From NCBI RefSeq assembly GCF_021028975.2, contig NC_059427.1, positions 112,406,001-112,470,000 of the forward strand: DNA of 64,000 nucleotides, written 5' to 3'. Positions within the stretch are counted from its first letter, which is position 1, and every line of letters begins with the position of its first letter. The DNA comes from Sphaerodactylus townsendi. Taxonomy: Eukaryota. Positions 2,066 through 60,880 of the stretch are shown here, piece by piece. The position numbers and the translations under genes were made by a program. Under the pieces are notes generated by a model that was not told the DNA's origin, made no database searches, and saw only the letters and a list, made by a program, of their open reading frames with translations.

Positions 2066-2177
2066 GTAAGCAAGAGAGAGTCTGAGTACGCTACAGAAAT
2101 CCTGGATTTCAGCTGAGTTTAGGACCCTGGGGAAGGGAGAAGGGATATCAGGTGTAAAGAGATGTTCTTCCACTCAC

Positions 2178-2910
2178 TTAAGATTGCTATAAGCCCGGGC
2201 TACTTTCCCCAAGATACGGTCAGAGCCAAACACAACAACGCGCAGGGTTGAGATCTTTGTATCCTCATCACAGCTCAGGAAGGGCCTACGTTGGGCAGAA
2301 ACATTCTCTGGGACCCGTTGCTGTAAAAGCGCTGAGCTCAGTACATGTTGGGGCAGTGACTTTGCCCGCCGGGAGCGCATAGGAATGTGGTGTTTGGCCA
2401 CAGGGTTACAGAGGCTCTCTGCTCGGCGAAGGGGCAGCGATAGAGAAGCCACCTCAGAAATGTCTCTCAGTTCTTTGCCCAGGATCAGCTGGCTTTTGCT
2501 TTTGAACAACTTGTATATTTTGTTGGTTAACCGCTGCCGCCTGGGTGATGTCTTCTCTTCCTTTGGATCCAAGCACCCCGTGGACTCGAGAGAGTTCTCA
2601 TCACTGTCCTCCACATAACCACTATCCATGCAGTCCTTCAGGCTGGAGACAAAACACTTCAAGGACTTTTTAGAGGCCAGTGAGAGCTCAGAGTCAGGGT
2701 CCTTGGAAACAGCAGAGACAGACACCCGTGAGTTACATGAACGGTCCTCTGACAAGGCTGAATATACAGAATCTTTGGAGATTGATTTCAGGGAAGACAA
2801 CAAAGAACCGTTTTGTGGAAAGCAGTCATCAGTTTCCTCTTCTTCATCATCTTCCAGAACTGCTGGCTTGGGGTAGTCACACTCCTTCTCTAGTACCTCG
2901 TTCAAGATGT
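2178..2910 (-). CDS. PIK3R5: PIK3R5 large central exon (733 nt)
   Basis: DILNEVLEKE...DDEEEE...MDSGYVEDSDE...KIYKLFKSKSQL...LPLRRAESLC...RRPFLSCDEDTKISTLRVVVFGSDRILGKVARAYSNL; ttgcag acceptor, gtgagt donor. Confidence 0.97.
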
Positions 2911-3194
2911 CTGCAACAGGAGGAGAAATACAAGGTACACAATCAAGGACGCAACAGAAAACCTTACCTAGGGTAAGACATCTTAACATCTGAAACCAGT
3001 TTTACATGCTGTACCATCTCAGCACTGAACCACTGCAAGATCAGTTTCAAGTCTGAAGGAGGAGGATCCTCTAGGTCACGACCAATATTGTAGGCTTATC
3101 AGAACCGTAAAAAAGGTAAGGAGTTGCCACTGCATGCCATGAGGACTAAGAAATTCCTCTCAGGCTCAAGCTTTGTCACATGCTCTCAGCTTAC

Positions 3195-21230: not shown

Positions 21231-23791
21231 GGTATGTTCACAAATTTCCACTAATCTATGAGTTGACATCAAGGATTTGCATTGTGAAACTGCCAAATAC
21301 CTCAGGCACTTTCTTAACTGAAGAGTGCTCAGTCTGATCTGATGTGAAATCTGATCAAGGCTGGTGATCAAATGAGAGCCCATGTGGTATAATGATTAGA
21401 ATGTGTAACTGAAAGCCCAGAAAACTTTGGTCCATCAGCTGCTATGCCATGAGGCAACCAGCAATGAGTCTGTCAATCCATTATACCTCATGGTTGTTGT
21501 AAAGTGAAGGAGGGGAGAGAACTATGCATGTTATTGTGAATTTCTTGGAGTAAGGGCACAATTTAAACAACCTCGGGTAAATATATATGCAGAGAAGTAC
21601 AAATCAGCATTAGGTAGAGATGAAACATGTGTTATGAGGACACAGAGAAATAAATATAACTTCAAAACCACCACAGAGCAGGATATTGGAGATAAGGGAC
21701 CTATTTACAGCTCACATTCATGTGTTGTTCATAGATGAACAGGAAGACCAAGGAAGTTGGAAACCAATCACAATCCTCAGAAAACTGTTTATCAAAAGGT
21801 CCAAAAGACACCAAAAGTTTGACAAACATCCTTTTGACATTGCTCACATGAGACTAACCAACATATCTGATCTTTTAGTTGTGCAGCTATTGCCATAAAG
21901 GGGACATCTTTTCTTTAGCAATATGGGACAGGAAGTGCAATGTGGGACAGGAAGTGATAAGACCAAGCTGCCTGTTTCTTGGAAGCCTGAGGTAGCAATC
22001 ACATACAAATAGCTACTGGATACACAGGTAGAAACAAACTATCCTACTTAGGTTGCAGAGCTGTCACGTATCTTGATTCCTGTGAACCATGTTTAAAATA
22101 CAATGGGAGAAAACGGGTGTAGAAATGGGGCAATCTTATCATTTTACCATAGAGGTTTTTGCAGGCGCTAGAGCATCATGTTACTTTCAGTTTTCACTGA
22201 AAGGGGTGTCACTGCACCAGCATGATGCCAGCCCTGAAGTCCTCACTCCCCAAATGCACTTGCAGATCACTACATGAGGACTGGCAATCCCATCAGGTTG
22301 TCATGAGCAGTTTGTAGGAGACAAAACAAGGCAGCAGTTCTTTAGTACGTCAGGGCAGCTATTCTTTAGTAAGTCAGGGCAGAAAGAGAATAAAAACCAA
22401 GCCTTTTGTAATATGGGGCATATCCCATTGTGTGGAATAAGTTCACAATGCTTTAATCCTGTGGAATAGTTATAATGCTGAACCCTGATTTGCAAGCACA
22501 ATGTGAAGATTTGTCCCAAACAGCACAAAGAATTTCAAGAGGTATAGATCTTAAGAGCCAGTTTTTAATGGTTTAAAAACTGTTGTAACCCACCCTGAGC
22601 CCTCTGGGATAGGGCGGGATAAAAATATGATAAATAAATAAAATTAGGCTGGAGCATCTTGAGTTTGGCTTTGTAGAGCATTCATAAATCCTTTTGCAGT
22701 CAATCTGTGCTATTTTGGGACAGTGCACATTTTCAAAGGGCTAGTTCCTCATCATGTATTGCCTGTTGAGGGGCTCTTTCTGTACTGAAGGGAACTATAC
22801 CCTCAATGTTCATCCCACAGATATGATCCTTTTTTCAAAGCATATAACTCTTGTAGAGTAGATTTTGTTTTTTGTTAATTTTATTTTTCTATTTTCTTTA
22901 ACCAAGGTGCTGACATTTCCTTTGGTAGTTTTTGCCTAAACATGAGCAAAATGATTTATAACAGATGTCTCTAAAAATCAATACAGGCCAGCAATGTCTA
23001 TGTGCACCATTGGTGGTAGTTTGCAAGACTACAAAATCGTAAGTATCTGATCACAACCTTTGAGCAAATCAGTTAATCTCCAGCATAGAATCCTTTTTAT
23101 TTAGTTTCAAGGTAACTGAGAGCAGATGATGATCACACTTTTCTTAGCACTGCTGTTCTGCTTTCTATCTTATTTCCCTTTCATATGGGGGAAGGAGAGG
23201 TTAGAGCGCAATAATCATGCATGGGTTTAATGCTATGGGATTTAGAATGAGAAATCCTCTGCCAAATAGTTGTTAAATATTTATTTCCTGCAACTGGAGT
23301 AAATACAAAGACTTTGTCAGTTGCTAACATCATCCAAGTATATCTCTGAAGCGAAGGTGAGATTTCAAGTGCAGCAGCTAAGCAATAATGTCCAGTGGCA
23401 TAGCGCCAATGGGGCTGGTTGGGGCACAATACCCTGGGCAAAGCAGTGGAAGGGGCATTGCCGGGCCACAGAGGGGGTGGGGCGGGGGGTTCTGAGGGGG
23501 TTCCAGGGCAGGGTGGGGGTGGATGGCGCTGCAGCAGGGACACAGGGAGTGCGCACCCCCGGGCTCCGCTTCTGATAATACCATACTCTCTAAAACAAGA
23601 GTTGCACAACATGTGACCTGCAGTCTTTTCTCTCCCCCACCCCTAGGCAATTCTGGGTATTTATGTGTCAAGTTCACTTACTTCAGTAGGTATTATTCCC
23701 AAGTGAATATGTATCAATCCTAAATACACCATACTCGCTAGAAATGCGCAAGAATGGATTTCTGTCCAAGAAACCTGGGATAGGATGGAGC

Positions 23792-23937
23792 GGACCATTG
23801 GATACTTACTGGGAAGGGTCCTTCTCCTGGGGGTTGTAGACCATCTTAGATGGGTGCTTTCTTGCCCTTTATCTAGGAGGCAGGAAATGACTTTTAAAAA
23901 CTTCCTGTCTGGTCTTCATCCTCCATTTCGTCAGTAT
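23792..23937 (-). repeat. DIRS 3' (right) ITR, including a terminal extension of about 29 nt (23792-23820)
   Basis: 23822-23937 is the reverse complement of 29218-29321 plus 29979-29989, with a few mismatches. Confidence 0.92.
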
Positions 23938-24139
23938 CCATTTGGCATAGCTACTGATCATAGAACATGATAACAAAAACATAAACAACACAGAACAGTA
24001 CCACCAAACGAGTGGAATTAATGTAATCTGTAACACTTAACTATATACAGTTATACCTCTAACCTGACCTATTCCACGTTAAAGAGGATGGTATGTCTAA
24101 GGGACATGTCTAAGGGAGGATGATATGTCTAAGCGAGGG

Positions 24140-24230
24140 CCAAGATGGTCTACAACCCCCAGGAGAAGGACCCTTCCCAGTAAGTATCCAATGGTCCGTT
24201 CTCCTGGAGGTGTAGACCATCTTGGATGGG
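24140..24230 (-). repeat. DIRS internal complementary region (ICR)
   Basis: 24140-24197 is complementary to the element's 3' terminus and 24198-24230 to its 5' terminus; junction ...GGTCC-GTT-CTCC... Confidence 0.93.
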
Positions 24231-24265
24231 ACCTCCTATAGAAGTGTCCTCCAAAAACGGGAGGG

Positions 24266-25526
24266 TTAGATATGATCATCCAGGATGTGCTCCAGAACCC
24301 TCCATCCAAAGGCGGATTCTGCTGCAGTCCAGGATTGGAGTTTGTAATGTTTTATGAAGGTGGAAGGAGAAGACCATATCGCTGCTTTACAAATGTCTTC
24401 TACGGAAGCTCAATTTCGAAAGGCTGCGTTAGCAGATGAACATCTAATGGAATGAGCTGTGATGCCGTGAGGTACTGGTAAATCTGTCGTCTTGTGTGCC
24501 TCTATTATACATGCTTTGAGCGTAGAGCTTATAGATGCTGCTGACATCTGGTGTCCTATATTTGGGGGTGAAATGTTGATGAACAGACTGTCCGATTGTC
24601 TGATGTTTTCAGTGCAAATAATGAAAGCTTTTACCGCCCTGCATGCATCCAGGTTGTGCCACAATCTCTCTGTAGGGTGAGTGTGTCTCGGGCAGAAATT
24701 AGGGATAACAATTTCCTGTTTAAGATGGAAGCTGGAGCTTTGGTCTGAAGGTCGGGTCTGTGCGTAATACCACCCTATCTGGATGGAACACGCAGAAATT
24801 GGGATTCACTGATAAGGCTCTCAATTCTGATACTCTTCTGGCCGATGTGATGGCTACAAGGAATAACGTTTTCATTCTCAACCACTTAAGGTGGATGGTT
24901 TGTATCGGCTCAAAGGGGGGCTTGGTGAGAGCCGCTAGCACCGTATGTAGCTTCCAGGAGGGAAATCTATGATTCACTGGTGGTTGTATTTGGGATACGC
25001 CTTTTAGGAATCTTACTACATCTGGGTGACGTGATGCTGGAACACCTTGGATCTTGGGCCAGATCGTGGATAGTGCCGCTATTTGACGTCGCAAGGTAGC
25101 ACTCCTCAGACCTAATTCAAGGCCCTCTTGTAGAAATTCAAGAATCAAAGTTATTTTGGGTGAAGTCGGGTCAACACGATGTTTTGATGCCCACTGTACA
25201 AAAACCTTCCAGGAAGCATTATAGATCCGCATGGTTGCCGGTCGCCGAGAGGCCATTAAGGTTTCAGTCACTTTAACTGAATATCCCTTGTTTCTTAGTT
25301 TTTCCCGTTCAACAACCATGCAGTCAATCGAAACCATTCTGGGTCCGGATGTCTTATGGGTCCTTGAGTGAGCAAGTGTGGAATGTTTGGCAGACGGAAG
25401 GCTGGTTTTATGGCTAGTTGTTGAATGACAGAAAACCATGGTCTTCTTGGCCATGCTGGAGCTACCAGGATGATCGATGCTCGAGATGCCATGATCCGTC
25501 GTAGCAGTTTTGGGATCACCGGAACT
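24266..25526 (-). pseudogene. DIRS tyrosine recombinase (YR) region, disrupted
   Basis: ...LFLVAITSARRVSEL (catalytic R)...TAHSIR (HxxR)...ICKAAIWSSPSTFIKHY (W, Y)...TAA at 24266. Frameshift at about 24737 and an internal TGA at 24410-24412. Confidence 0.9.
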
Positions 25527-27428
25527 GGGGGGGAACGCATACATCAAGGCGTTGGGCCAATGGGTAGTTAATGCGTCCGTTGCGAAGGCCTTCGGGTCAA
25601 AGAACCTCATGACATATTTGGGTATTTGATGATTGTCTTTGTTGGCAAAGAGGTCTAAGGATGGGGTCCCGAATTTCTGGCAGATCTGTTGGAAGATCCT
25701 GGGATCCAGTTTCCATTCTGCGTCTTGAACTGTTGTGCGACTGAGCCAGTCTGCTTGGACGTTCAACTTGCCCTGTACGTATTCCGCTTGAATGGAGAGA
25801 ATGTTGGTTTCCGCCCATTTGAGAATCTTGCTGACTTCTTGACGAAGCTTTGGAGATCTCGATCCTCCCTGGTGATTGAGGTAGGTCTTTGCTGAGATGT
25901 TGTCTGTCCAGATGACCACATGGCGTTGTTTCAGTATACTCTTGAAGCTCAGCAGCGCCAGTCTGATTGCTCTTATCTCCAATATGTTCATTGGTAGTGA
26001 TGATTCTTGGTGAGACCATTTGCCTTGAATGATTTTGCCATCGAGGGTGGCTCCCCACCCCAGTAGACTCACATCTGAGTACAGTTGTGGTCTTTCTGGA
26101 AAAAGATACACTTTTCCCTGGGTCAGGTGTTCTCTGACCATCCACCAAGAGAGTTCTGTCTTCAATGTTTGTGGTATGACTAGGGTTTTGTCGTGTTTTA
26201 CTATGATGGCGTTCTGATACGGACGGAGAAAGGTTTGTAGAGGCCTTGCATGCAGTCGGGCCCATTGTAGAAGATTGATGGTAGAGATCATTAGGCCGAG
26301 AAGACTGGTCAATTGAAGAACAGAGAACTTGGAGCTGCGAATCACTGATGCCACTGTTCGTTGTATCTTGGTGATCTTTTTGTTGGGAATGAAGAAGGAG
26401 TTCTTTGATGTTGAAATCAGTGCTCCTAAGTGTTCCATCTCCATCTTGGGGATCAAGGAGCTCTTTTCCTTGTTGATCACAAACCCATGTTGTTCCAGCA
26501 CTTCCATCACCAGAGAAAGGTCCCTGATGGCTTCCTCTTGGGATCGCGACCGAATAAGAATGTCGTCGAGGTAGGGGTGTAGGTGTATGCCTCTCAGACG
26601 AAGGAACACAATAGGAGCCAGTAGCACTTTTGAGAAAACTCTCGGTGCCGTGGCTAGCCCAAAGGGTAACACTTTGAACTGGAAGTGTTGGTGTTGGAAG
26701 GCGAATCTCAGGAACTTGCGGTGTGATAGGTGGATAGGGATGTGTAGGTACGCTTCGCTGACGTCCAGGGAAGTCAGTAGGTCTCGATGTCTCAATGCCT
26801 CTGCTATCGTTCTGATAGTTTCCATTTGGAATCGTCGGAGTTTTATATGTTTGTTGAGATATCTCAGGTTCAGTATGGTACGCCAGTCGCCATTCTTTTT
26901 GGGAACAACAAAAAGGTGTGAGTAAACTCCCGTCTTTCTGTCGTGGACTGGGACTTGCTCTATAGCCTGAATGTCCAATAGATGTTGAATGGCCATCTTG
27001 GTGTGACGTGCTTTGATTGAATCTGGTTTGAGGCATGATGGAATGAACCTGGATTTTGGGATTTGGTTGAATTCTATCATGTAGCCTTGAGATATCACGT
27101 CTTGAGTCCAACGATCCACATGACTTCCCTGCCAGGCTGTCTGAAATAACTGAAGACGTCCCCCTATCAGAATGGTGTGATAGTCATGCTCTGTTCGTTT
27201 TTTCGGAATTTGTAAACTTTCCTCCTCTACCTGTGGGTCGAAAGGAGGATCTGCCCAGAAAGGACTGATTTTGCCAAGTGGTCTTCCTGCTATCCCAGGT
27301 AGATTGTTTAGTGTCTTTGTTGAATCTAGGCAGAGTCCTCTGAGTACGGAAGAATGATCTGGATGAACGTGCCGGGGAGGTGGCTCTAACAAATTTTGGC
27401 AGAGTCTTTCTTTTGTCTTTTCCTTCAA
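25295..27428 (-). pseudogene. DIRS pol: reverse transcriptase, RNase H and N6-adenine methyltransferase-like domain; +1 frameshift at 25527-25533
   Basis: IGGRL, YSHLFVVPKKNGDWRTILNLR, SLDVSEAYLHIPI, LPFGLATAPRVF and YLDD (RT). YSDVSLLGWGA, NILEIRA, WTDN and ADWLSR (RNase H). DLFA...YAFPP then VPVIPKLL...LVAPAWPRRPWF (MT-like), whose tail is ORF 25295-25540. Confidence 0.93.
25597..27183 (-). other. Long ORF overprinted on pol (N-terminal part of DIRS ORF3/YR)
   Basis: About 528 stop-free codons overlapping RT/RH in another frame. It is in the same frame as gag, and in the same frame as YR once the extra C at 25527-25533 is removed. Confidence 0.8.
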
Positions 27429-28994
27429 CTAGAATTTGGTCGAGTTCTTGACGAAAGAGGCATTCTCCCCGAAAAGAGTAACCTGCTACCACTATTTTAG
27501 AATGTTGATCTGCTTGCCAAGCACGAAGCCATGAATTTCTTCTGGCAACAGTTGAAGTTGCGATTGCTCTTGCTGCATAGGACATCACATCCAGGGTTGC
27601 ATCCGCTATAAAGGAATTTGTGAGGAGGATGTGTTGCAGGCCTTCCCTGGTGCCTGCTTGTTCAGGTGGAATCATGTCCATGAGTCTTTTTAGCCATGCT
27701 AGGGAGGCCCTAGCCAAAATCGAAGAGGCCACTAGTGCTCTGATGTTAGCTGTCATCCACTCATGAGATCGCCTAAGGGCTGCATCAGATCTCTTATCTA
27801 TGGGGTCTCGAGGGGAACCATCTCCTTCTTTATTCACTAATCCTGCTGTTTGTAGACCCACCATGGGTGCATCTACCAGGGGTATTTGCAGCATTCTATT
27901 AAAGAATTCAGGCATGACATACAATTTCTTAGCAATCGCTGGTAAGCCTTTGCTGGATGATGGATTGTCCCATTCTTTTCTGATGCAATTTTCAAAAAGC
28001 TCAGGGACTGGAAAACAGACTGGGCCATCATTATCAGATGGAAAATATGTTTGGCTACCTTTAGGTCTGCCCTTTATATTTTGTTTTGTGGAGGTATTAG
28101 TGCCTGGAGGATCTAAGGCGTTTTCTGAATCTTGCAATTCCAAGGCAGCAATGGCTTTGGAAAGTAGGGAGGCCAGGTCATCCACTTTGAAAAATCTATG
28201 TGATTGCTCTGGGGTTTCAACATTAATCTCTTCTGAGTCAGAAAATCTATTTTGGATCTCCTCTTCCTCCCCCTCACTGGCACTGCTCTCTCCTGGGAAG
28301 GTGAGAGGGTTCCTAGACTCTGAATGGTGGCGCCTGTGTGAGGGCTGATGAGGAGATCTGGATCTATTTCTGCGTCTACTACTACTGGCTTCTGACTGTC
28401 TAGCCCTGGCAGAAGATTTTTCAAAAGCTGCAGAAACGGTGTTTGAGAGGAGCTGAACAAATTCCTGGGGGGTAAATCCCTGCCACCCAGTTAAAAATCC
28501 CTCTGCTCCCTGCCCTCCAGAGTGGGTCTGCGCTGCACTGGAGGATTGAACACTCCCCGGGGACCCGGAACGCTCTTGCCTGTGAGCCGCCGTGGTTGAC
28601 TCCATATCAGGGGGAGGAGGAGAGAAGCGATCGCGGTAGAGTTGCTGCGCTCTGCTAGGCGGGTCTCGTTCTGGAGGGGAGGCGTTCTGGAGCGACGCTG
28701 CCTGCGTTCCGCTCCGGCGCTCGTCGCAGCGTTCCGTGGGCAGGCACTCAGAAGCGTCTGAGTTCGCCTGCTGCTTTTTCTTCCCCCGCGCCTTTTTCGG
28801 GAGGGGGGGTGAGTCTCTTCGTCCCGTTCTCGGTCGACCCAGCGGCCGCCTGAACGGGCTCCGTTGCCCTCCTCCAAGCTAGCCCCGCGGCTGCTGGAGG
28901 GGGAAGAAAGACTGCGGGCTACTGAGGCTCGGGTGCCCTCTGCAGTCGTCCTGGCGAATGTCTCCCTTTCCGGGGAGAAGGATCTGTTCGCCAT
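27184..28994 (-). pseudogene. DIRS gag (ORF1) with LAP2alpha-like domain; one frameshift near 28680
   Basis: ATG at 28994 (MANRSFSPERE..., Arg/Ser-rich). The 473-aa ORF contains FPVPELFENCIRKEW...KKLY...PLVDAPMVGL...PRDPIDKRSDAALRR...VARRNSWLRAW...FRGECLF, typical of vertebrate DIRS1 gag. Confidence 0.85.
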
Positions 28995-29217
28995 CTTGAA
29001 TGGCTGAGTAAAAAGGGGCCAAGGTGCTGTGGAACCGAAAGTGAAACTAGCCCTGTTTTTTACCCTTAAACTATTCCTCACACAAATAAGGAAGGGGAAG
29101 GGTATGGGTAGACAAAAGACAACTCACAGACTACACAAAGACAGGATTAAGGCAAAAGGAATAAAAGTTTCCAAGGAGCAACCAGAGATCCTTGCACTCC
29201 TGATCAGGCAGGAAAGA

Positions 29218-29990
29218 ATACTGACGAAATGGAGGATGAAGACCAGACAGGAAGTTTAAAAAAGTCATTTCCTGCCTCCCGGTTAAAGGGCAAGAACGCA
29301 CCCATCCAAGATGGTCTACACCAGGGGTAGGGAACCTTTAACACTCAAAGAGCCATTTGGACCTGTTTTCCATGGGAAAAGAAACACTTGGAGCCGCAAA
29401 TAATTTTTGACATTTAAAATGAAGATAACACTGTATATATTGGGTTTTTTTACCTTTTACTCCGCTCATTCTGAGAAGCGCATGGATACATCCGCCCTGC
29501 TGCCTGCAGGGCGGGCAAGGATGGGGCCAGCAGCTCGGCCTTGCCGGCCGCCGGGAAAACGCCCGCCCCACTCAAACGGGGCGGGCAAGAGGGGAAGCCC
29601 GCAGCGTGGCCCAGCCGGCCGCAGGCAGTTGGTGCGCCTGCCCTGCTGCCTGCAGGGCGGGCAAGGATGAAGCCGGCGGCTCGGCCTTGCCGGCCGCCAG
29701 GAAAGCGTCCGCCCCGCTCCAATAGGGCGGGTGAGAGGGGAAGCCCGTGGCGCGGCCTCGCCAACTGCCGGGAAAGCGCCCGCCCCGCTCGAACGGGGCG
29801 GGTGAGAGGGGAAGCCCGGAATGCAGCCCAGCCAGCCGTGGGCAGTTGGTGCGCCTGCCCTGCTGCCTGCAGGGCGGGCAAGGATGGGGCTGGCGGCTCG
29901 GCTCGTGGAGCCGCAGTGCAAGGGCAGAAGAGCCGCATGCGGCTCTCGAGCCGCAGGTTCCCTACCCCTGGTCTACACCTCCAGGAGAAC
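29218..29990 (-). repeat. DIRS 5' (left) ITR, interrupted by a hAT MITE
   Basis: Matches the 3' ITR and the ICR once 29322-29978 is removed. Confidence 0.9.
29322..29970. mobile_element. Non-autonomous hAT element (649 bp), CpG-rich, with internal ~145-bp tandem units
   Basis: TIRs CAGGGGTAGGGAACCT...AGGTTCCCTACCCCTG; perfect 8-bp TSD GTCTACAC (29314-29321, 29971-29978). Confidence 0.95.
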
Positions 29991-32900
29991 TGCCAGAAAA
30001 CAGTGGACAAACCTGTTCAGGAAAGTCATACAAAGCACAGCCACCTATTCCAGCTCATTCCTTTGGCTGACCTCAGTTTTTTCCTCTTCTGATGGCCCCT
30101 TTACTTGGTCATTGGCCCTTCAGGGCAAAGGCCCACTGGGAAATGCCTCCGTGAAATCAGTGACCTGTCTACCCAGCTCTATGGCATCACATTTTCACTA
30201 AGTTCCCAACCCTTCGCTTTCCAAACATTATTTTCCCTGATGACATCCCTAAATCTCCAGGATTTTTCCAAGCCAGAATTAGCAACCCTAACTCTAGCCT
30301 ACAAAAATATTAGCCCTTTGCACCACATCAGTGCCTTAAAAAGTAATGAAAGGAATAATAATTGTTTTTAAAGGCTTCCTTGACAAGATGCCAGAAGACC
30401 TTGTCAAGTTATTTTACAGACTTGACCAAGATACACCATTTTTCTGGGTTCCTAGAGATGCTTCTAACCTCTGCTAACTGTCACCTACTTTGGAAAAGCC
30501 AATCTACTAATGATTTACTCATACCTACGGAAACACGAAGTTTACAACTAGAAGTTTACAAGGACCACTCAGTTTTTCTTGAATTTTCAGTCTTACTTTA
30601 GAAAAAATGCTGAGAAGACATTTCAACCAATACTGAATATTTCAGAATAATATGAACTTTTACACATTACATAGAAAACATTCAGTCCGGAACTTTACCA
30701 TTTGGGAACATGATTCTTACACCTCTTGATTTGTAAGCTACATGAAATCATTTGGTTGTAACATACCACCTTTCCTTCCCTAACCTGTTAATATGCCTTC
30801 AGATTCAGCCATGCTATTGTGGACATGTTGCAACATTAATATTGCAGACACACTAGAAGTCAGTCTTCAGCCCCAAATAGATCTATTGAACTGATTATAC
30901 GGACACAAATAAGGCTTTTTGTTGCCACAAGAGGCATCCTTTCAGTGTGCTTTCTGTCCTTAAATACAAAGAATGGATTCATATCAGTGGTTCACTTTGG
31001 ATCTAATGATACATACATAAAATGTGTACATAGGGAAGATAGTTTCCCTTCTTGCTGACCTTCAATGTATGTACTTAATGGGAAGCTGCCCATAATGTAT
31101 AAGAATCATTTTTTCCTTTGCTGGGAGCACAGCCAACACCACCAGCTTACTTCAGTAGTGTGAATTAATAGAACTGGGCCAAGGATAAACAGACTGCTGA
31201 CAGTGTATGCAAATCAGTCCCAGCATCCAGTCTGAAAGGGGCTTTTTGAAAGCTAGAACAAGCAATGGCAGAGACTGCAGCTGCTTTGGCAAAGAAGAGT
31301 GCTTAGAAGTTACCATCAGCAAGACTCCCATGCTTCGTTCATGTACCTTGCCCGTTGGATTGTATCTTTCAACAAGCAGGTAGGAAGGCAAGGGATATTT
31401 GGTAGGACAAGACCATGAAGACAACCTACATCATCTCTTTCAAGAAGAAGTTTTAGGATGTGTGCCCCAGACCGCACCACCAATTGCTGTACACAGAATT
31501 CTTCAAATGCAAAGGTACCCCATAGATAAATGCTGCACAGCCTTTCACACTTAATTACAGTCATTTTATTAACCATTCTCCAGTGTGCCTTTTGTTGTTT
31601 AGGCTATTGGAAGCTGTTTCCAGATAACAGAAAAACAATTTCTAACTTTCATTTTGAATTGATTTTAATGGCAATACATACAGTATCTGCCGCTACATAC
31701 TTCTTCTGTTCTGGTTTCAGAGAGTTTGAAACAAATACGGTACTTATTTTACGGCTTCTGAAGGAGGGCACATACTGATCCATTAAACAAAACTTTCCAA
31801 CATTTTATGGCCAGATAGTGACAGTCATGCTAAATATAGAAACAATTGCTTTGGCAACCATCAAAATTGCTCTAGAATTTTTAGGCACTTTCACAATACG
31901 TTATGTTTCTTTCATTGTTAAAATCTGCATTCTCTTATAGTACCTTGAAAAATGGTTTTCCTTTTATGTAAATTGTTTTCCTTTTATGTAAATATACTGT
32001 TCAGTATACATGCAAATATGCATGTGTATAATTACACAGCAGCCATTGTACTGAATATATTTTATGATCCTGAATTTTGCTACAACCTATCATGGATTTC
32101 CTTTATCAACATGTACCCTGAGGACATCTGAAACTAAGCAGGGTGGTGCAAACAATATTGTGGCCAGTTTAGGAAGGATGAGGGTTGAGGGTGTTTTTCT
32201 TAGAAATCTGCTATGCTGAGGCCTACCTAATTTTGATGCTTATATATCCTTCGCTCTCTCTCTCTTTTGAAGAGAAATCAACTAACCCGATTACTTCAAG
32301 AAAAAATACTTCAGTAATGAATATCCATCAAGAAAGTACTGTGAAGAAATTAATTAGGATAAGGTTGCCAATTCCAGGCCAATAAGCAGGTTGGAAACCC
32401 AGTTAGGAAGAAGATATCGTGAATGGTTTGGGTACTGGTAGTTTACCTCAGTCCAGGTTTTTGGACAGTCCAAGTTTTCCTCTTCAAAGTTACTTTGGCC
32501 ATTCGTTTGGTATAAAGAGTCTCCTTCAGTTTGCAAACAGCTTGAATAACTAACTTGCCTTTTGGACATAACACCTTCCTTTATATAAAATCTAACCTTC
32601 TCAAAATGAAGAATGTTGACTTATTCTGTTGTTCAGAAGGAAGAAAAGTGGCAGGGGAGAGTGAGGGAATTAAAAACAGCAACTGGGAGGGAAACCAGGA
32701 GCAGAAAGAACAGATAGCATTTTCTTTGCCTATGAGTCTCATGGTTTCCCATTTGTAATTTCTAACTCCTGAACCTCACCTAAAATTGCCCTGAAAAATG
32801 ATGCAGTACCTGAAACAAGACGACTTATTGCTATATGCATTCAAATTGCTCTGTTTAAGTAGACTGATCGTACAATCTGAGGCAAAGAAGTCAAGGAGCC

Positions 32901-36551: not shown

Positions 36552-36554
36552 TTC

Positions 36555-36945
36555 TTCACCCTCACCCTCCCTTCCTCCGCTCCCTCCCCTTCACTTGCAT
36601 GCCACCTCTCCCTCCCTTCTCTCCTCTCTCCTCCCTTACATGCCACCCCTCCCTCTCCTTCCCTTGCTTGCCACCCCTCCCCTCCCCCTCCCTCTGCTAG
36701 GATGGGTAGGCCATGTCCAGATGCTGGCCCCTCCCCTCCCTTGCATGCCACCCCTCACTCCCTTCACTCCTCCACTCCCCCTCCCTTGCATGCCACCCCT
36801 CTCCTCCCTTCCCTTCCCTTGCTTGCCACCCCTCCCCTCCCCCTCCCTCTGCTAGGGTTGGTGGGCCATGTCCAGATGCCGGGGCCCCTTCCCCTCCCCT
36901 GCATGCCACTCCTCCCCTCCCCTCCCTTGCATGCCACCCTTCCCC
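36555..36945. repeat. Polypyrimidine minisatellite built from CCCCTCCCTTGCATGCCA-like units
   Basis: About 8 degenerate copies, with a higher-order duplication (36660-36740 resembles 36815-36900). Confidence 0.8.
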
Positions 36946-38689
36946 GATGTTGACCTCATTGAAATAAGAGATGCTTCAGACCAGCATCACCTGCGGATCT
37001 TCAGGAAGAAGTCACATGAAAAAAGTTACCTCCATCACAGAACGAATCTCCCAACATTTTGTCATTGGCTCCAGCCCCCCAGGAAGTCATTGTATGGTGA
37101 CATCCCCTCTACCAATCCAAAAGTGACCACAAGCTCAATTAGATTGGGGATCCCTGCCCTAGAGATCATTAAGACATAATAGAAGACAGATTTATCACTA
37201 TCATTCAAGTCAAACAAACTACACAGTCTAGAAGATCTATCCTAAACAGTTGTACCATTCTAAGCCCACATGAGGACACAACGCTGCTCACTGCAACACT
37301 CCATTTTCTCTAATGAAAAAGCCAAAATAAATTATCCACACTACGAAAGGATCTATGTCATCAGTAAGGAATTCATCTCCTTTTCTGAGTTTCAAGCATT
37401 ACACTCTATTAGTTCCTTGCATGTTGCAGAAGAGTAGCCAAAACAGAACTTTTCAGTGTTTTTATGTTCTCCGTTTCGGGACTGCTATTTAGCTGGAAAG
37501 GTAGTATAAAAATGTTGAAGACCATCAAACTATTCATCACTCTAGGAACTGAACTTCCTCATAATGCAATCGCTAGTCCACCCACTTCCCTTGTTTATGC
37601 CACTCTCCTAGTTACAATTGTGAAAACAGATGTTTATTCTTTGCTTCTGAATTTAGTCTTTCGCCTCAACAATCTCTCTTATTTTTTAACACTAGCAGTA
37701 AAGCCCATTGTGGAGGAAAATGCAATGGAGTCTAGAAGGGGGGGCGAGCAAGCTCCTCCCCCTGCACAGGGCTTTACTGGTGCCTCACCCTCACCCCCAC
37801 CCCCCATACACAGCTTCTTCCCACCTACCTGATGATGATGTGCTGGTCCTAGGAGTCCTGTAAGTGTGAAAGGCTGGAGGATGGGGAGGGGAAGGAGGCT
37901 GTATAAGTGAATTATATTGGGTACGATGTTTATATTGCCTCTTCACCCAAATATAAGAAAAAACAGAGGTCAAGTCACAGATGACCCTACTTAGCTTCTG
38001 AGATCTGCTGAGGTTGGGCTATTTTACCACTTAGCAAATGGCAGCTCAAAATTATGTGAATAAAAAGTACAGCAGCAGAACTAAATTTCGTATTGTCAGT
38101 GATATTTATTTAAGTATTGCATAGTATTATAACAATATTGTTTTCTCTGGCTGATTACCCACGGCTGCCTCTGCCTTGCCCTGCTCTGATGCAAAAGTTG
38201 CACCATAAGTGCCCTTGCTTTCTGCAGGGAGAGTGAGAAGCACAGGTGGGGCACGAGGAAGCGCATCGGGACAAGAAATCTTTCCCTAATGAGCTTTCTG
38301 TCTCATACGCTGCAGAAAAAAGCACATCGGGACAAGATTTCTTACCCTGACGCACTCCAGCTGCCAGCGCACTCCAGCTGCCTCATTGGTAATCAGTCTC
38401 TGTTCCTCCTTGAAAATACACAGTATTTTAACTTCATTCTGGTTATTTAGGTTTCAGCCACCATCCATCTCATGCATCTATATGGAAGAATGCATGCAGA
38501 GTTCTGAACACCTGACTTACAAGCTTGTGGAATGCAACCCATTTCTAAGTCTATGGCCAAACTCCCACTGAAAATTTAATCTAGATACAACCAAGTTTCA
38601 AAAGAATCAGCACCTTTTCATCCAGGTTCCAACATCCTCACTGCAGCATGTTTCTAGTGAAGACGTCTAGGCCTGCCTCTTGAGGGGGA

Positions 38690-38860
38690 TGCCTCCTGTC
38701 AGGGGTGCAATTGTTAAGCTAGCAGCACCAAAATTTCAGAGTATCTTTAGGAGACCCCCCTGATGATACCACCCAGGTTTGGTGAAATTTGGTTCATGGG
38801 GGCCAAAGTTATGGACCCTCAAATATGTAGCCCCCATCTCCTATTAGCTCCCATTGAAGT
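38690..38860 (+). mobile_element. Internal fragment of the same hAT family
   Basis: Matches 51215-51380 (gtcaggggtgcaattgttaa...gcaccaaa...gataccacccaggtttggtgaa). Confidence 0.7.
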
Positions 38861-39718
38861 GTTTTTTCAAAAAGGTGCATGTTCAAGCAGGTCCAGGAAA
38901 ATCCTTTGATGGGGGGGGGGGGGCACCAGAAATGGGACTGATCTGTGTTCCAAGGTTCGGCAGTGGGGAGATTGCAAGGAAACCTGGATATTTCGGGTGA
39001 CTATCCCAGGATTAATCGCCAGTGGGAAATCACCCTGTGACTTCCCATATTCTTGTTCAGAGTAGGTAGAGTTGGAATAAAAGGAACCTGGAGCCATCCT
39101 TGATTTTTGCTCACGGCCCCAAACACTACTTTACCAGGAAACTGTAGGAGCACAAACCCAATACACTGACCTCACTCAGAGATTACAGCACCAACGTGCA
39201 GGAGCCAATGCAAATCAATATCACAGGAACATATTGATTCAGCATTTGCACTTGCTTCTCCTTATCACGGGAAATGTGGCAGCAGCTCTTTATAAACACT
39301 GAGCATGCCACATGCTGATATATTTGTCAGATCTGGAGGCAGCAGAAGGTATCTACTTAAGGCAGGGTTTTTTTTCAAAAGACATGAAGATTCCTTTCTG
39401 TTCCAGATATAGAATGTATCGTATCTACTTTGCGTAGAATGGATTTGTATATCTTTTACATGCCAAGCTGCTGTAGATAGTAAATATGCATAGCCATAAT
39501 ACTACTTCGGTGGGCTATTTGCATGCATCCAAGAACAGCAGACATCCTTCTCCATGAGAGGTGGAAAAACGCAAGGTTGAATATCTGCCACAAAGTCTTG
39601 GTAGCTGTTGTCTGTATGAGGTGCCCGAAGCATTTACGGCATTTAGAAGCAAAGAATAGGCAGCATTAGGCTGATAGCCAATCCAAAACTAAGTTTAGAA
39701 GAAAGTAAGTCTGCTTAG

Positions 39719-40946
39719 AAAGAACGTAGGTAAGAGGGGGGGTTTTCTCGGGTTCAGATCCCCCCATTGCATGTCTGAAGCTCTGCCCCCCCCCCCTGTT
39801 TGTGGGTTTTTGTATTTTTAAAGTGTTTTTTTTTGTTTTGGCCTGCGGGGGGCGTAGTTTTTAGGCTAGTGGCACCAAAATTTCAGGCTATTGTCAGGTG
39901 ATACTCCTGATGATACCTTCAGCTAAGTTTAGAGTGAGAAGTTTAGGTTTTAAGGTTTCCAAAGTTATGAACCCCCAAAAGGGGTGCCCCATCCCCCATT
40001 GTTTCCAATGGGAGCTAATAGGTGGGTCTACCCATTTGAGGGTCCATATCTTTGGACCCCCTGAATCAAACTTCACTAAACCTACGTGGTATCATCAGGA
40101 TAGTCTGCTGCTGATACCATCCCGGTTTGGTGAAGGTTGGTCCAGGGGGTACAAAGTTATGGACTCCCAAAGGGGGTGCCTCCATCCCCCATTGTTTCCA
40201 ATGGAAGCTAATAGGTGATGGGGGCTACACCTTTTAGAGTCCATAATTTTTGACCCCTGAACCAAACTTCACCAAACCTGGGTGGTATCATCAGGAGAGT
40301 CTCCCAAAGATACCCTGAAAGTTTGGTGCTGCTGGCTTAACAATTGTACCCCTGACAGCAGGCACCCCCCCCCCAAATTTTCCCAGATTCTCTTTTTAAA
40401 TCCACCCCTTTCAGCATGGATTTAAAGAGAGAATCTGAGGTCCCCTGTTTAAACATTGAAAGTGATGTTGTTTCAGGGTGGGGGATAATCCACCCCAAAA
40501 CAGCATCACTTTCAATACTGTTTTATCTGGGGACCTTAGATTCTCCCTTTAAGGTGGATTTAAAAGGAGAATCTAGGTTCCCTAATTTAAACACCATTGA
40601 AAGTGATGCTGTTTGGGGGTGGATTCCAGCATCATAGCAGTCGCCCATGGGGGGAGGTGCGCAAACCTCACATTTTGCACTGAGCTCCATTTTCCCTAGC
40701 TACCCCTCTGCCTGGAGGGGAGAGAGAAGGGACTGCCGACTGCCAGCTGGGAGCCCAGCCGGTGGGGGAGGCGGGGTGGGCGGGTCATGGGAGTTTGCCA
40801 TCCCTTGCCTCGGAGAGCTGCTTTTATAAGCACTTAGGCTGGGGGTGGGGCTTGGGGAGGCGTGGCCACACCCCCAAAGGCAGGTGGGGGCGTGGCCTTG
40901 CCCCCAAACACCCCCCCCCCATAAAAAATCTATACCTACGTCACTG
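39719..40946 (-). mobile_element. Non-autonomous hAT element of about 1.2 kb with internal repeats
   Basis: TSD CTGCTTAG (39711-39718, 40947-40954); TIR core ACGTAGGTA/TACCTACGT; inverted relative to the 50376-51664 copy. Confidence 0.85.
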
Positions 40947-43689: not shown

Positions 43690-44545
43690 GCTTTAAAATT
43701 TTCAGCAAAGCCAAAAAACCTGAATAGCTTTATTGGGAAACCCAAAAAGATTGACTCAATTTGAGTCTATGGGGGATCTTTGGAAGTTTCTGCTTGTAGT
43801 GGGGACATGTTTTAAGGTAAAGACATCAAACTTGTCCCATTGTTTTTAATGAGAAATGGGGGCAACCAAACTTCCCCAAACCTGGTTGTTCCTATCAGGA
43901 ACGTCTCTCAGAGCCACCTTGCAAGTTTAATGCCTTGATCTTGAAAAAAATGTCCTCCCTACAGATGGAAACCCACCCACCCCCATTCCCCAGATTCTCC
44001 CATTTGAATTGACTGGACCCCATTGTAGCCTATGGGGAATTTCTAGGGTATCTATAGGGAGCATTTTTCAAGATAGAGGCACCAAACTTGCAGGGTTGTT
44101 TTGGAAGATTATCCTGATAAAAGCAACCAGGTGTGGTGAAGTTGGATTCAGGAGGTTCAATTCTATTGGTCCCCAAAAGGGTAGTTCCCATTGTTTCCTA
44201 TTGTTTCTAATGGGAGATGGGGATCTCCTTTGGGGATCAATAGAAATGGACCCCCTGAACCAAACTTCAGCAAACCTGGATTTCTCTTACCATAAATGTC
44301 TCCTGAAGCCACCCTGAAAATTTGCTGCTTCTACCTTGAAAAATGCTACCCCCACAGACATCTCCAGAAATTCCCCATAGGCTATAATGGAGTCCAGTCA
44401 ATTCAAATGGGAGAATCTATGTGAAAACTGGCCTTTACAGTTTAAATAGCCAAACCCCATAGAATAACCCAAATACCTATTCAGTTTATCAGGTTTTTAA
44501 CTATTTGGCTTGGGTTTTTTGCCTGGTTCTTGCATTCAAACCCAA
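43690..44545. mobile_element. Older palindromic relative of the same repeat family
   Basis: Shares the caccaaa / gaaccaaacttca modules; internal inverted repeat 43990-44040 versus 44370-44418. Confidence 0.5.
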
Positions 44546-45221
44546 AACCTACCCACCCAACCCCCTACCCCAAAGCTGAATAGGGATTTTTTGGATTTTT
44601 TGCAGATTCAATTTTACCAAATCAACAAGCTTATTTATATCCTGTCCTCTCGGATTTACATGGACTATCAGGTCAGCTAACAATTTAAAACATGCATAAT
44701 AAAATCTTATTAAACTGTTAAAACAACCATTTAAAACCAGTAAAATCATCCACTCCAAACACACATAATTAGAACAAATTAAAAACAGATTTCAAAATAT
44801 GTACAAAGACATGAAAACAGTAATTAAAAGAGTTGTCACTGAGGCAATGCCAAGCAAAAACAACAAAAGTAAACAGCTCAAGCAAAAACAAAAAATGTAA
44901 ACAGCAACAACTTTCAGCAGGCAAAATACCAGTATAAGGATAATGGGTAGAAGTGTCACTGTTGGCATGCAAATAAGGGTTTTACAAGTAAACAGGCATG
45001 TCATATTTTTAAGGATATGAATTTCAAAAAATCCACAGTTACACAACACATACCAAAAAAATGAACACATACATGAGGTCTGTGGAAATTAGTCTTGACT
45101 GAAATAAGTTCATCCTTTAAGTTAGGGGAAATAAGCAACGGCAAATTTTTATCCTGCAGTTCCTCAAGGAAGTGGGCACTGTTCTCCCCACATTTTTCTT
45201 CTCACAACAACCACCCCAGTG

Positions 45222-45736
45222 CAGTGGTGTATTTACCCAGGGACGAGGGGTACTCTCTGTCCCTGGGCACCACTAATTTGGTCACGTGGGGGGCGCAAAA
45301 TCGGCTTCCCACATGGCCAGGAAGACTCGTTGTCTTTGGGCAACTTCAGCCCTGCCCATGTCATCATCGACATGGGCGGGGCCAAGGAGCCCCGAGGACA
45401 CCACCACCCCAGGCTCACCCCCCCTCTCCTGGCTCGCAGCTGGCAGTCCCTTCTGCCCTCCCCTCTGGGGAGAGCAGAAGGACTGCCGTCCCCCGTCCTC
45501 TGGGAAATGTTTTTATAAGCACTGAGGCTGGGGGCAGGGCTTGGGGAGGCGGGATCATGCCCCTGGAAGTGGGATGTGGCCATGCCCCACTGAGCCCTGC
45601 CCTCCCTCCATCAGTGTTTATAAAAGCAGCTCACAGAGGACTGGAAACGGCAGTCCTTCTGCTCTCCCCAGGTGCAGGGGGGAATGACCCAGAGACAATT
45701 TGTCTCCAGGTGCCATTTTACTTTAATACGCCTCTG
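45222..45736. mobile_element. hAT-type element inserted into a MIR/Squam3-like SINE remnant
   Basis: Termini CAGTGGTGTA/TACGCCTCTG; TSD CCCCAGTG/CCCCTGTG; the flanks join as cacaacaaccacccc.gtg-agataggctagg. Confidence 0.7.
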
Positions 45737-46049
45737 CCCCTGTGAGATAGGCTAGGATGAATAAAAAGTAATTATCCAAAGCACCAAATGAGCTTCGTGG
45801 CAAAATGGGAACATGAACCTGGTTTCCTGGGTCACATACCGAGACTCTACTAGACTCTACTACTAGATCACCTTGACTCACGTAGGGTGGTGGGGGAAAC
45901 AGAAATCACACAGTTTCACTAATCAAAGCTTGTATATGCTGTGGTGTAATAATAAAATGAACACTACATTAACTATCCCAAACTATGCTAAGTGAAGCTG
46001 AATTTTTCAACTTGCACAAATGATGCAAATTAAGCAGATCTCATAATAT

Positions 46050-50375: not shown

Positions 50376-51664
50376 CAGGGACGTAGGTATAGATTTTTTA
50401 TGGGGGAGTTCGGGGGGGCCACCCCCACCCGCTCCTAGGGCATGGCCACGCCTCTCCAAGCCCCGCCCCTGGCCTAGTGCTTATAAAAGCAGCTATCCAA
50501 GGCCCGGGACAGCAGACTCCTTTGCCCTGCCCTCCCCTGCCCCCTACCAGCTGGGCTCCCAGCCGGCAGTTCCTTCTGCCCTCCCCTCTGGGCAGAGGCA
50601 CAGAGGGAAAATGGAGCCCGGTGCAAAATCTGAGTTTTGCGCCCCCCCCGGGCAGCCGCTGTGATGCTGGAATCCACCCCCAAACAGCATCACTTTCAAT
50701 GGTGTTTAAACTAGATAGCCCAAATTCTCCTTTTAAATCCACCTTAAAGGGAGAATCTGGGGTCCCTAGTTAAACAACATTGAAAGTGATGCTGTTTTGG
50801 GGTGGATTCTCCCCCACCCTGAAACAGCATCACTTTCAATGTGGCGTAGTGGTTAAGAGCAGGTGGATTCTAATCTGGAGGAACCGGGTTTGATTCCCTG
50901 CTCTGCCGCTTGAGCTGTGGAGGCTTATCTGGGGAATTCAGATTAGCCTGTGCACTCCCACACATGCCAGCTGGGTGACCTTGGGCTAGTCACAGCTTTT
51001 CGGAGCTCTCTCAGCCCCACCCACCTCACAGGGTGTTTGTTGTGGGGGAGCAAGGGCAAGGAGAGTGTAAGCCCCTTTGAGTCTCCTACAGGAGAGAAAG
51101 GGGGATATAAATCCAAACTCTTCTTCTTCTTCTAAACTGAGGATCTCAGATTCTCCCTTTAAATCCATGCCGAAAGGGGTGGATTTAAAAGGAGAATCTG
51201 GGGAAATTTGGGGGGTGCCTGCTGTCAGGGGTGCAATTGTTAACCTAACAGCACCAAACATTCAGGGTATCTTTAGGAGACTCTTCTAATGATACCACCC
51301 AGGTTTGGTGAAGTTTGGTTCAGGGGGTCCAAAATTATGGACCCTCAAAAGTGTAGCCCCCATCTTCTATTAGCTCCCATTGGAAACAATGGAGGATGGG
51401 GCACCCCCTTTGGGAGTCCATAACTTTGGACCCCCTGAACCAAACCTCACCAAACCTGGGTAGTATCATCAGGAGAGTCCCCCAAACAATCTCTAAAAGT
51501 TTGGTGCTGCTAGCCCAAACAATGCTCCCCTTGCAGGCCAAAAACCAAAAAAACACTAAACATGTTTTAAAAACCCACAAACGGAGGGGCGGAGCTTTGG
51601 ACATGAATTGTGGGGGGGGGGGTTTGAACCCGAGAAACACACACACCCCTTACCTACGTCCTTG
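50376..51664 (+). mobile_element. Non-autonomous hAT element, same family, with a nested SINE
   Basis: TIR CAGGGACGTAGGTA/TACCTACGTCCTTG; perfect TSD CTTGATAC (50368-50375, 51665-51672). Confidence 0.9.
50841..51133 (+). mobile_element. Same SINE, nested in the hAT element 50376-51664
   Basis: Full A/B boxes, body and CTT tail; it interrupts the host element at a position that is contiguous in the 39719-40946 copy. Confidence 0.88.
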
Positions 51665-52680: not shown

Positions 52681-54565
52681 CCCCCTTTTCCAGAGTTTCT
52701 TCAATTTCCAACCACAACAAAAAATAGATTACCTCCCTACCATGGCCTAGCCTCCCTTTTTATCTCCAAATAAGATACAGTCATCTGCTACTTTTGCTGT
52801 GACCAATAAGACTGTTCTCTTGTCATCTATGAACTGTGAAGGGTCTTGTAAAAGGTCAACTGTTGACCAGTGTGGTCAACTGGGAAGAAGAGTGTATTTT
52901 CCTGCTCAAAATTTCCCTTGCTTTGTTAAGGTAATGGGTGATTGACTGGACTTCTTGTATGGGTCATTATGGATCACTGAAATATTAATTTCATACATTA
53001 AGGTTGTTCACTGGCATGTACAGAAGACTATACTATGCCCTAGATTGGTTCTCCAGTAAATATATCACCTGTTAAGAGGTTTAAGAAAAGCAGGTCACCT
53101 TTTACAACCTACTAGATGCACATCTTTCAAAGCTGTTCAGCCCTCTCAAATCATACTCATGGAAACACAACTGGAAAGCCAGACAGCTCATGGAGGCATT
53201 TTAATCTCTCTCATTGAAAAAGCACTCAAGACAGCAACATGATCTTGGCAGCAAACCACTTACACGGTATAATAGTACTTGTTTATATATGTTCTGCTAT
53301 AAGATCTCTTTCCTCAATGAGATATCCCAGCACCCTCTATAAAGATGAGTAGGAAATTAATACATATCCTACCCTGGTGCTACAAAAACTAACAAAAAAT
53401 TCTGAATGTAAAAACAGTACCTCACTTGAACCATGTATCTGGTTAGGATTTCTACACCATAACACATTAAAGCCAATTACAGCCTCTTTCAGTCTAAGAA
53501 ATGCCACTAGTTTCTCCCCTCTCCCTGTAGCAGGCAGGCATCAGGAGTGCACAGCGAGATATTGTCATAGAAGTGGAGAGAGAACTCAAGAAAACAGTCA
53601 CAAAGTTTCACGACTGCAGATGGCTAAACACAATTGGATTGGGGCGGGGAGGAAGAGGAAATGCCACCTGGAAGAATGAAAACTTGTTTGTGCAAATGGT
53701 TCCAGATCCAGGATACAGTCTGAGTAGATACAATGTTGATCATTTTGATGACCTGTCGCAGGGAGAAGTTTTATCAAAGGAAATCAGTCTATACCAACCG
53801 AAAAGAATATGTCCCTTTGGAGGATGTCCTTTTACAGAAATTAAACACATTGAATCTTGAAAAATAACCAGGGGTACATTTAAAATCCTAAAAAAACTGG
53901 AACCGTTGCATGGGTTAATGGATCCCAAACTTTCTGCAGCTACTAAATTTTCCCAACCCACTTCAACCAAATCAACGTCATTCTGCTTTCCCCCTCTCTC
54001 CAATACCAAACATAGGAATCTCATGTTCATTAAAAACGAAGCCATTTATATCCTTTCTTTCACATTCAGTTCTTCTGAATGCATAAAATCACTGAGCAAC
54101 AGGCCATGTTTCGTGGCAATTTGGCACTCTGTGCAGAGGCAGCCCCAAATTTGCTATCAGTTTGTTTTCCAGAGCTTCCCTTCCCACCTTACCTTACATT
54201 TCCTCCTCCCTCCTGACCTTACAACTAGGATGGCTGACCTTCAGGTGGGACCAGGAAATCTCCGGGAAGTGAGACTGATCTGCAGACTACAGAGGTCAGT
54301 TCCCTTAGAGAAAAAGGGAGCTGTGGAGAGTGAGCTCTCTGGCATTATATTCTACTATGCTCCCGCCTCTCTCCACGCTCCACCCTCCCAGAGCTCCTCC
54401 CCTAAATCTCTGGGAATTTCCCATCCCAGAGCTGGCAACCTAAATGACAATCCATCTGTGAGAGAACTGCAACCCATTTTTTTTTTTAGTTTCAAACCAC
54501 AATTGGAGAAATACTGTATTAGACTGATAGGGATGCAAGGAGTTTTGAACTATCCCAGTAGAGGG

Positions 54566-54844
54566 GTGGTGTAGTGGTTCAGAGTGGCACTGGCAGACTC
54601 TAATCTAGACAACCAATTTTGTCTAATGTGGAGAACCAGATTTCTTTTCCCACTCCTCTGCATGACGCCTGATGGGCGACCTCTGCCAAGTCACAGTTCT
54701 CCCAGAGTCACAAATCTCTCAGCATCACTTACCTCACAAGGTGACTGTTGTGAGCGGGGGAAGAGAAGGCAATCATAAGCCACTTACAGATTCCTTAAAG
54801 GCTGAGAAAAGTGCGGTGTAAAAGCCAACTCCTCTTCTTCTTCT
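54566..54844 (+). mobile_element. Squam3-like SINE
   Basis: tggtgtagtggtt...ggagaaccag...acctcacaaggtgactgttgtg...CTT tail. Confidence 0.7.
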
Positions 54845-60830: not shown

Positions 60831-60880
60831 GACTGCTTCTGTACCTCCCAAAGTTTTAGAAGAGGAAAGGAACGAAAGCA

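Follow-up and report, generated by a model that had tools for sequence, protein, structure and literature searches.

A single in-frame stop codon separates gag from the tyrosine recombinase ORF in DIRS1-like retrotransposons and is a candidate site of readthrough

In DIRS1-like retrotransposons related to an element found in the 64-kb stretch of DNA analysed here (the window), gag and the ORF3 that ends in the tyrosine recombinase (YR) share one reading frame and are separated by a single stop codon, while pol is overprinted on ORF3 in the +1 frame. The ORF3 frame remains open beyond chance from the gag stop onward, and it is very probably translated from at or near that stop, as judged from the sequences. 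Low-level readthrough of the gag stop, giving a Gag-ORF3-YR fusion, is the explanation that we favour, and we put its chances slightly above even. The copy in the window is itself decayed, and the UGA-CUA stop context seen there is not a conserved signal.

The minus-strand region from 23788 to 29322 of the window is a DIRS1-like retrotransposon (Table 1). Its inverted terminal repeats (29218-29320 vs 23835-23937) are 93% alike, and two portions of the internal complementary region (ICR) pair with the element ends, 24142-24201 with 23788-23847 (98%) and 24209-24230 with 29301-29322. Gag with a LAP2alpha domain, RT, RNase H and methyltransferase were all detected, a tyrosine recombinase is present instead of a DDE integrase, and the named relatives closest to the element in protein searches come from squamates. 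A word-indexed search with gag gave no matches, but the HMMER library search found 643 homologs at E<=0.001. In pol, the RT (about 26906-26424) matches RVT_1 with E=6e-23, whereas the RT_RNaseH (E=0.011; RNase H at about 26024-25866) and Dam (E=0.0013) matches are both below the Pfam cut-offs; the methyltransferase tail is 31-45% identical to the pol tails of 15 of the related loci described below. The N-terminal part of the YR gave a weak Phage_int_SAM_1 match (E=0.066) and no match among NCBIfam or PDB sequences, and its closest named homologs are from squamates (55-61% identity). Since Pfam recognised the YR in only two of the nine locus ORF3s tested, the identity of this domain rests on BLAST to the window-copy YR and on catalytic-type motifs. 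The 5′ ORF may be the N-terminus of gag, shifted out of the gag frame by a probable 5′ frame break. No second DIRS copy was found within the 64-kb window.

Table 1. Features of the DIRS1-like element, in window positions.
Feature	Positions	Strand	Remarks
Left inverted terminal repeat (element 5′ end)	29218..29322	-	93% inverted match to 23835-23937 over 103 nt
5′ ORF, ATG 28994	28491..29123	-	No Pfam match
gag ORF, LAP2alpha domain, Arg/Gly/Ser-rich tail, first ATG 28605	27184..28878	-	PF11560, E=3.7e-13
gag stop and context AGA GCA TGA CTA TCA, candidate readthrough site	27178..27192	-	TGA 27186-27184
pol, +1 frame, up to the start of the methyltransferase	25533..27428	-	RVT_1, RT_RNaseH and Dam matches
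ORF3 N-terminal arm, 528 codons, gag frame, overlapping RT/RNase H	25597..27183	-	Relatives lack its terminal TGA
C7 run, at or near a frame break	25527..25533	-	Three-frame translation
Methyltransferase tail of pol, third frame, stop 25297	25295..25534	-	
Tyrosine recombinase (YR), N-terminal part	24744..25388	-	88 homologs; matches ORF3 ends of 15 loci
YR, C-terminal part, other frame	24266..24805	-	Break near 24740; stops 24412 (internal) and 24268 (terminal)
Internal complementary region (ICR)	24142..24230	-	Complementary to both element ends
Right inverted terminal repeat (23835-23937) and right extension	23788..23937	-	

Several other sequences were noted in the window. Just upstream of the element, a GC-rich segment (29450-30092) contains several overlapping ORFs and a 160-nt repeat present three times; its positions 29969-29990 match 22 nt in the ICR region. 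A long inverted/direct repeat family, which we infer to be MITE-like, is nested with SINE-like repeats at 38684-40370, 43858-44357 and 51210-51537, and 36554-36946 is a pyrimidine-rich minisatellite whose units measure about 28-45 nt. Other stop-free stretches of 190-275 codons lie at 2174-3001 and 60332-60910 on the minus strand and at 45077-45745 and 53861-54574 on the plus strand.

The first-pass annotation of the window had described the end of gag as AGA GCA TGA CTA TCA on the minus strand with its TGA at 27186-27184, followed by about 528 open codons with a TTG at 27111 and a first ATG some 50 codons past the stop, and had placed pol in a +1 frame open from 27428. Each of these statements was confirmed, with 528 codons open at 27183..25597 and the first ATG at 27036, the 50th codon past the stop. 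A CTG at 27135 is a further potential start in the arm, which aligns to ORF3 proteins of 945-959 aa (best E=1.6e-39). In pol, the first conserved motif, GGRL, is at 27164-27153 and the first ATG at 27080. However, the gag frame does not lead to the recombinase in this copy, contrary to what had been stated: it ends at a TGA (25599-25597) about 70 codons ahead of the first YR-like sequence, and the N-terminal part of the YR sits in the frame that carries pol further upstream as a result of a break in frame within or close to the C7 run (25533-25527). ORF3 homologs have a sense residue at the position of the 25599 stop in all seven alignments covering the site, and we infer that this stop and the frame breaks reflect decay of the window copy. 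Its ORFs are not intact as in an autonomous copy, being interrupted by stops at 25599 and 24412 and by frame breaks near 25530 and 24740. Since the gag frame misses the YR and the YR lies across a frame break, the window copy is a decayed one, which in its present state is unable to make Gag-YR. A 988-aa protein with six members (P0024) joins RT and integrase SAM in one frame, like the pol frame of the window copy, possibly through a similar frame break.

Related elements with DNA sequence were obtained by a pol-alignment scan of bacterial genome assemblies, which gave 21 loci (L001-L021). These apparently intact DIRS retrotransposons most likely lie on eukaryotic contaminant contigs. The gag/ORF3 junction is spanned by 17 of the loci, which represent six assemblies, with 11 loci from JBEVXV01 alone; L018-L021 do not span it and are excluded from all counts. 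ITRs were seen in six of the loci, and their pols are 31-86% identical to one another. The in-frame arrangement of gag and ORF3 across one stop, noticed at first in the window copy, was found in all 17 loci, with exactly one stop between the upstream ORF and ORF3 and with pol in the +1 frame. In 15 of them the frame continues unbroken for 980-1009 codons to a YR that matches that of the window copy, the two exceptions being L002, which ends at the contig end, and L016, which has an N gap. The vertebrate gag profile matched the upstream ORF in only two of the 17 loci; the remaining upstream ORFs were called gag by their position and Arg/Gly-rich tail. The shared frame is kept at nine different distances, from 17 to 38 codons, between the stop and the first conserved Trp of pol. 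The long arm also exists in vertebrates, as seen in eleven ORF3 proteins of 937-959 aa that include frog and tortoise sequences.

The scarcity of ATG codons near the start of ORF3, as had been remarked for the window copy, is likewise found among the loci, which have no conserved ORF3 AUG. Their first ORF3 ATG comes 16-506 codons past the stop, more than 100 codons in nine of 17, and five loci have none within the first 250 codons. A near-cognate NUG sits over the first pol Trp, a position occupied by ATG in only four of the 17.

The openness of the ORF3 frame was compared with a null model in which the pol protein is fixed and synonymous codons are drawn from each element's own non-overlapping coding sequence. 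Under this randomisation, none of 18 elements has a probability above 3.2e-4 of keeping 250 codons open; for the window copy the value is 2e-8, and the probability of a frame open to the first ATG is 0.035. The probability that no second stop occurs before the first conserved Trp varies from 0.009 to 0.89 per element, and its product is 1.7e-10 over the 18 elements or 5.7e-7 over 11 chosen as distinct, values which are optimistic given shared ancestry and which overstate independence since a single assembly supplied 11 of the 17 loci. The third frame, for its part, contains 3.7-8.9 stops per 100 codons. An open frame beyond chance, combined with a late ATG, argues for an arm whose translation begins at the gag stop or close to it. 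The long open frame is real, while the short stop context alone is weak evidence; the window contains 17 copies of the TGACTA hexamer, where 31 would be expected.

The gag stops of the 17 loci are variable, with TAG in 12, TGA in four and TAA in one, and they are followed at +4 by C (eight), G (seven), T (one) or A (one); UAG-G is found in six. CUA follows the stop in none of these loci and is present only in the window copy (as CUAU). The expectation that the stop would be conserved as TGA-C(TA/TR) in frame with the YR was therefore borne out for the frame but not for stop identity or CUA; the variable stop identity counts against the original proposal, whereas the frame did not vary. UGA-CUA was rejected as a conserved signal, and so was the idea that CUA is forced by the His-Asp-Tyr that pol encodes across the stop context (27178..27192), as the Tyr is not conserved (third pol residue in only one of 20 motif matches). 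The CUA motif is incidental or family-specific. C also follows seven of 15 ORF3 terminal stops and, being equally common there, shows no demonstrated selection at +4 of the gag stop.

The vertebrate relatives are represented by protein sequences only, in which [HNFY]-Asp would be the pol-frame trace of U|GA-Y. This pair is enriched just before GGRL (18/674 vs 4/1157 positions, p=2e-5), as noticed post hoc in 45 dereplicated proteins from 69 of 120. All 11 hand-picked named tetrapod pol proteins have His/Asn-Asp with a variable next residue. Independently, Ala is the last residue in 15 of 62 gag homologs (kept from 149 by motif and tail length) vs 2.9% within their tails. These observations suggest a UGA followed by a pyrimidine in many tetrapod elements. 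Against this, the H/N/F/Y-D/E motif is found in only 16 of 38 dereplicated proteins with the full upstream stretch and in only two of nine further proteins (one by script, the second by eye). The pairing of gag tails with pol N-extensions yielded 79 pairs at <=4 mismatches of 14 and none at <2, and since no pair is clean, the position of the stop in the vertebrate relatives is a deduced one.

In regards to RNA structure, the mean folding z in the loci is -2.98 and -2.96 in windows from +3 and +78, vs -0.35 just before the stop (n=17), a modest peak given the values of -0.8 to -2.8 at other offsets. The region 3′ of the stop in the window copy, whose folding had been proposed as a check, shows no stable structure (z=-0.20). 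A 6-bp hairpin that starts at the first base past the stop and includes CUA (27183-27164, minus strand) is not significant vs shuffles. Two 120-nt minus-strand windows reached z values of -3.7 (27333-27214) and -3.1 (27108-26989) with 25 shuffles; the first begins 147 nt ahead of the stop and the second 78 nt past it. There was no Rfam match in the 64-kb window.

According to the explanation that we favour, a single mRNA would carry gag and, past one stop, a further stretch of about 1000 codons in frame that ends in the YR, with pol overprinted in the +1 frame of the same molecule. Most ribosomes would terminate at the stop and produce Gag, while a minority would read through to a Gag-ORF3-YR fusion of about 1500 residues, which could serve to deliver the recombinase to the Gag particle in a low proportion. 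The signal would be a weak stop in a permissive context rather than one fixed motif: GCA-UGA-CUA in the window copy, probably N[CA/AA/UU]-UGA-pyrimidine in many tetrapod elements and UAG-C/G in most of the loci, often followed by structured RNA. Readthrough is the best supported reading, and no other requires at once that gag and ORF3 share a frame and that the codons directly past the stop be free of stops. The proteins searched included no natural gag-ORF3 fusion lacking a stop; P0233, P0245 and P0298 were considered as such and rejected, being RefSeq models that hop frames or skip the stop. Of the Gag-ORF3-YR readthrough first proposed for this site, the layout is upheld in the relatives; UGA-CUA as the conserved signal is not supported, and the window copy is broken.

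Splicing could also remove the stop, if a donor within the gag tail were joined to an ORF3 acceptor, and would give a shorter Gag-YR, about 1265 aa long in one squamate family. In a cluster of 32 RefSeq models from Rhineura floridana, gag and ORF3 meet at a single junction (nine of the 15 listed have 1261-1265 aa), the pol-frame models P0136 and P0154 use this junction too, and an Anolis sagrei model has its entry into ORF3 almost at this point (profile position 210 vs 213-217). However, these spliced models are gene predictions, and others enter ORF3 at five other positions (about 5, 120, 290, 338 and 423) or hop all three frames. Splicing to about position 215 would moreover leave the preceding 200-250 stop-free codons unexplained, a crude score detects no donor whose position or phase is kept among 18 gag tails, and the window copy has GAA instead of AG at the equivalent acceptor position. 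Splicing is in our view a real alternative, though an unlikely one. In one Rhineura DIRS family (P0136, P0144, P0149, P0154, P0139), a Met in the pol frame precedes GGRL by about 46 codons and one modelled intron is common to the gag- and pol-frame models; this family may use a different expression route.

Less likely again, in our estimation, is termination at the gag stop with reinitiation downstream, or scanning past gag, by which ORF3 would start at an AUG or near-cognate codon and the YR would be made without Gag. AUG-independent reinitiation is known for LINE-1 ORF2, and the first conserved pol Trp forces a NUG-G in the ORF3 frame in 18 of 18 elements (in the window copy the CTG at 27135, with A at -3). 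The vertebrate ORF3 predictions of 945-959 aa also begin with a Met near the stop. However, reinitiation needs neither the frame shared by gag and ORF3 nor the stop-free stretch, and both hold in all 18 elements; the frequency of ATG at the NUG codon (4/17 loci) is about that of chance.

An internal promoter near the end of gag, giving a shorter RNA from which ORF3 and pol would be translated from their own starts, is very unlikely. It could find a parallel in the minor promoter that lies in Tca2's gag-pol junction (PMC2194720) and accommodate the pol-frame Met found upstream of the stop in five of 17 loci and one Rhineura family, but the first ORF3 ATG is more than 100 codons in for nine loci, 12 of the 17 loci and the window copy have no upstream pol Met, and a single 4.5-kb mRNA bearing three ORFs is described for Dictyostelium DIRS-1 (PMC3950715). 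Finally, an incidental layout, with the open frame a by-product of the pol codons and UGA-CUA due to chance, is highly improbable given the <=3.2e-4 obtained per element for 250 open codons and a third frame full of stops, although the CUA part, which is not conserved and belongs to the common TGACTA, may well be chance.

Whichever way ORF3 is translated, pol needs a separate route, as the first-pass annotation had pointed out, since it lies in the +1 frame and the window copy has no pol-frame Met before the stop. The same absence characterises the 12 loci just mentioned, of which one is truncated at the start of its contig, and the pol frame has its first Met 35-140 codons past the stop, beyond the first conserved Trp and motifs. 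As pol is usually without a usable AUG, the gag stop may also cause a +1 frameshift. Bases 2 and 3 of the codon before the stop are equal in nine of 17 loci vs a background of 0.29 (p=0.034), a post hoc result on loci that are not independent; in the window copy they are not equal. The open pol frame upstream of the gag stop was considered as a frameshift window and rejected, since the composition of the gag tails accounts for this openness (P=0.10 over 17 elements). The gag stop could then be a three-way switch on one mRNA, where termination would give Gag, readthrough Gag-ORF3-YR and a +1 shift Gag-Pol, an extension that we regard as doubtful. It would fit the +1 position of pol, its lack of an early AUG and its conservation from 7-28 codons past the stop, and weak stops were reported to feed both readthrough and frameshifting in experiments (PMC9841425). 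If true, one codon would set the ratio of three proteins, with two enzymes overlapped for about 650 codons.

DIRS elements are widespread among animals and also in other eukaryotes, and the portions of the literature examined do not say by what means a single RNA serves for the expression of three overlapping ORFs. The layout described here offers a reason for the recombinase ORF staying open across RT and RNase H. Should the readthrough reading be true, it would yield recombinase rather than polymerase, superfamily-wide, and one stop might also control pol. The interest of the site in the window itself is limited, since the locus is dead and CUA is not general. The layout also matters for annotation, as gene finders put introns or internal AUGs into DIRS elements. 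Several RefSeq isoforms of host genes (SMURF2, STIMATE, TAPT1, MED14, HDAC7) from squamates and a caecilian include DIRS gag/pol/YR sequence (P0122, P0129, P0132, P0136, P0140, P0142, P0149, P0153, P0160 and P0366), which suggests exonisation or annotation artefacts.

Compared with known systems, the element has ITRs, an ICR, a right extension, a LAP2alpha gag, an RT/RNase H/methyltransferase pol and a YR in common with vertebrate DIRS1-like elements (AcDIRS2, XtDIRS2/3, DIRS-37_XT). A long pol/YR overlap was described in half of 28 DIRS elements (PMC3266345, PMC9210276); the available text of these papers gives the overlap, but not an in-frame stop between gag and YR or a translation route for YR and pol. 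No proposal of readthrough for DIRS was encountered in the literature searched, and the novelty of the present one is provisional, as the works of Goodwin and Poulter may well note the stop. For the YR of Ngaro elements, a frameshift from pol into YR was proposed (Poulter and Butler 2015, quoted in PMC13003380); Ngaro elements differ by their split direct repeats and short pol/YR overlap, and the quotation contains no in-frame gag-YR layout.

The +1 frameshift genes antizyme and bacterial RF2 resemble pol in having a second ORF in the +1 frame, without AUG, whose conserved part begins just past the ORF1 stop, and the antizyme P-site codons listed before UGA (UUU, CCC, UCC; PMC1874602) resemble several in the loci. 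They differ in that the DIRS loci are without a single shift-site consensus, and the GCA of the window copy is absent from the antizyme P-site list as given there. The window-copy stop is identical to that of OPRL1 from -3 to +6 (GCA-UGA-CUA), with U instead of G at +7 in the element; the OPRL1 stop is reported as the top human UGA-CUAG stop, with about 17% readthrough that needs the P-site GCA (PMC9841425), whereas the relatives of the window copy do not have this motif, a signal of the UGA-CUAG or alphavirus UGA-C kind, in common. Among retrotransposons, Tca2 of Candida and SIRE1 of soybean also have ORFs split by one stop, whose bypass was inferred from the layout, but they are LTR elements with a DDE integrase; the gag-UGA junction of Tca2 alone was reported not to direct readthrough in a yeast reporter (PMC2194720). 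Moloney MuLV has the same succession of gag, one in-frame stop and an enzyme ORF expressed as a low-level fusion (PMC2194720), and the UAG-G of six of the 17 loci is a further resemblance. Its 8-nt spacer and pseudoknot, as described in that source, were not seen conserved in the DIRS loci, where stop identity varies as well. A further difference lies in the enzyme: in MuLV the ORF reached by readthrough is pol, whereas in the DIRS elements the in-frame ORF is the recombinase and pol occupies the +1 frame.
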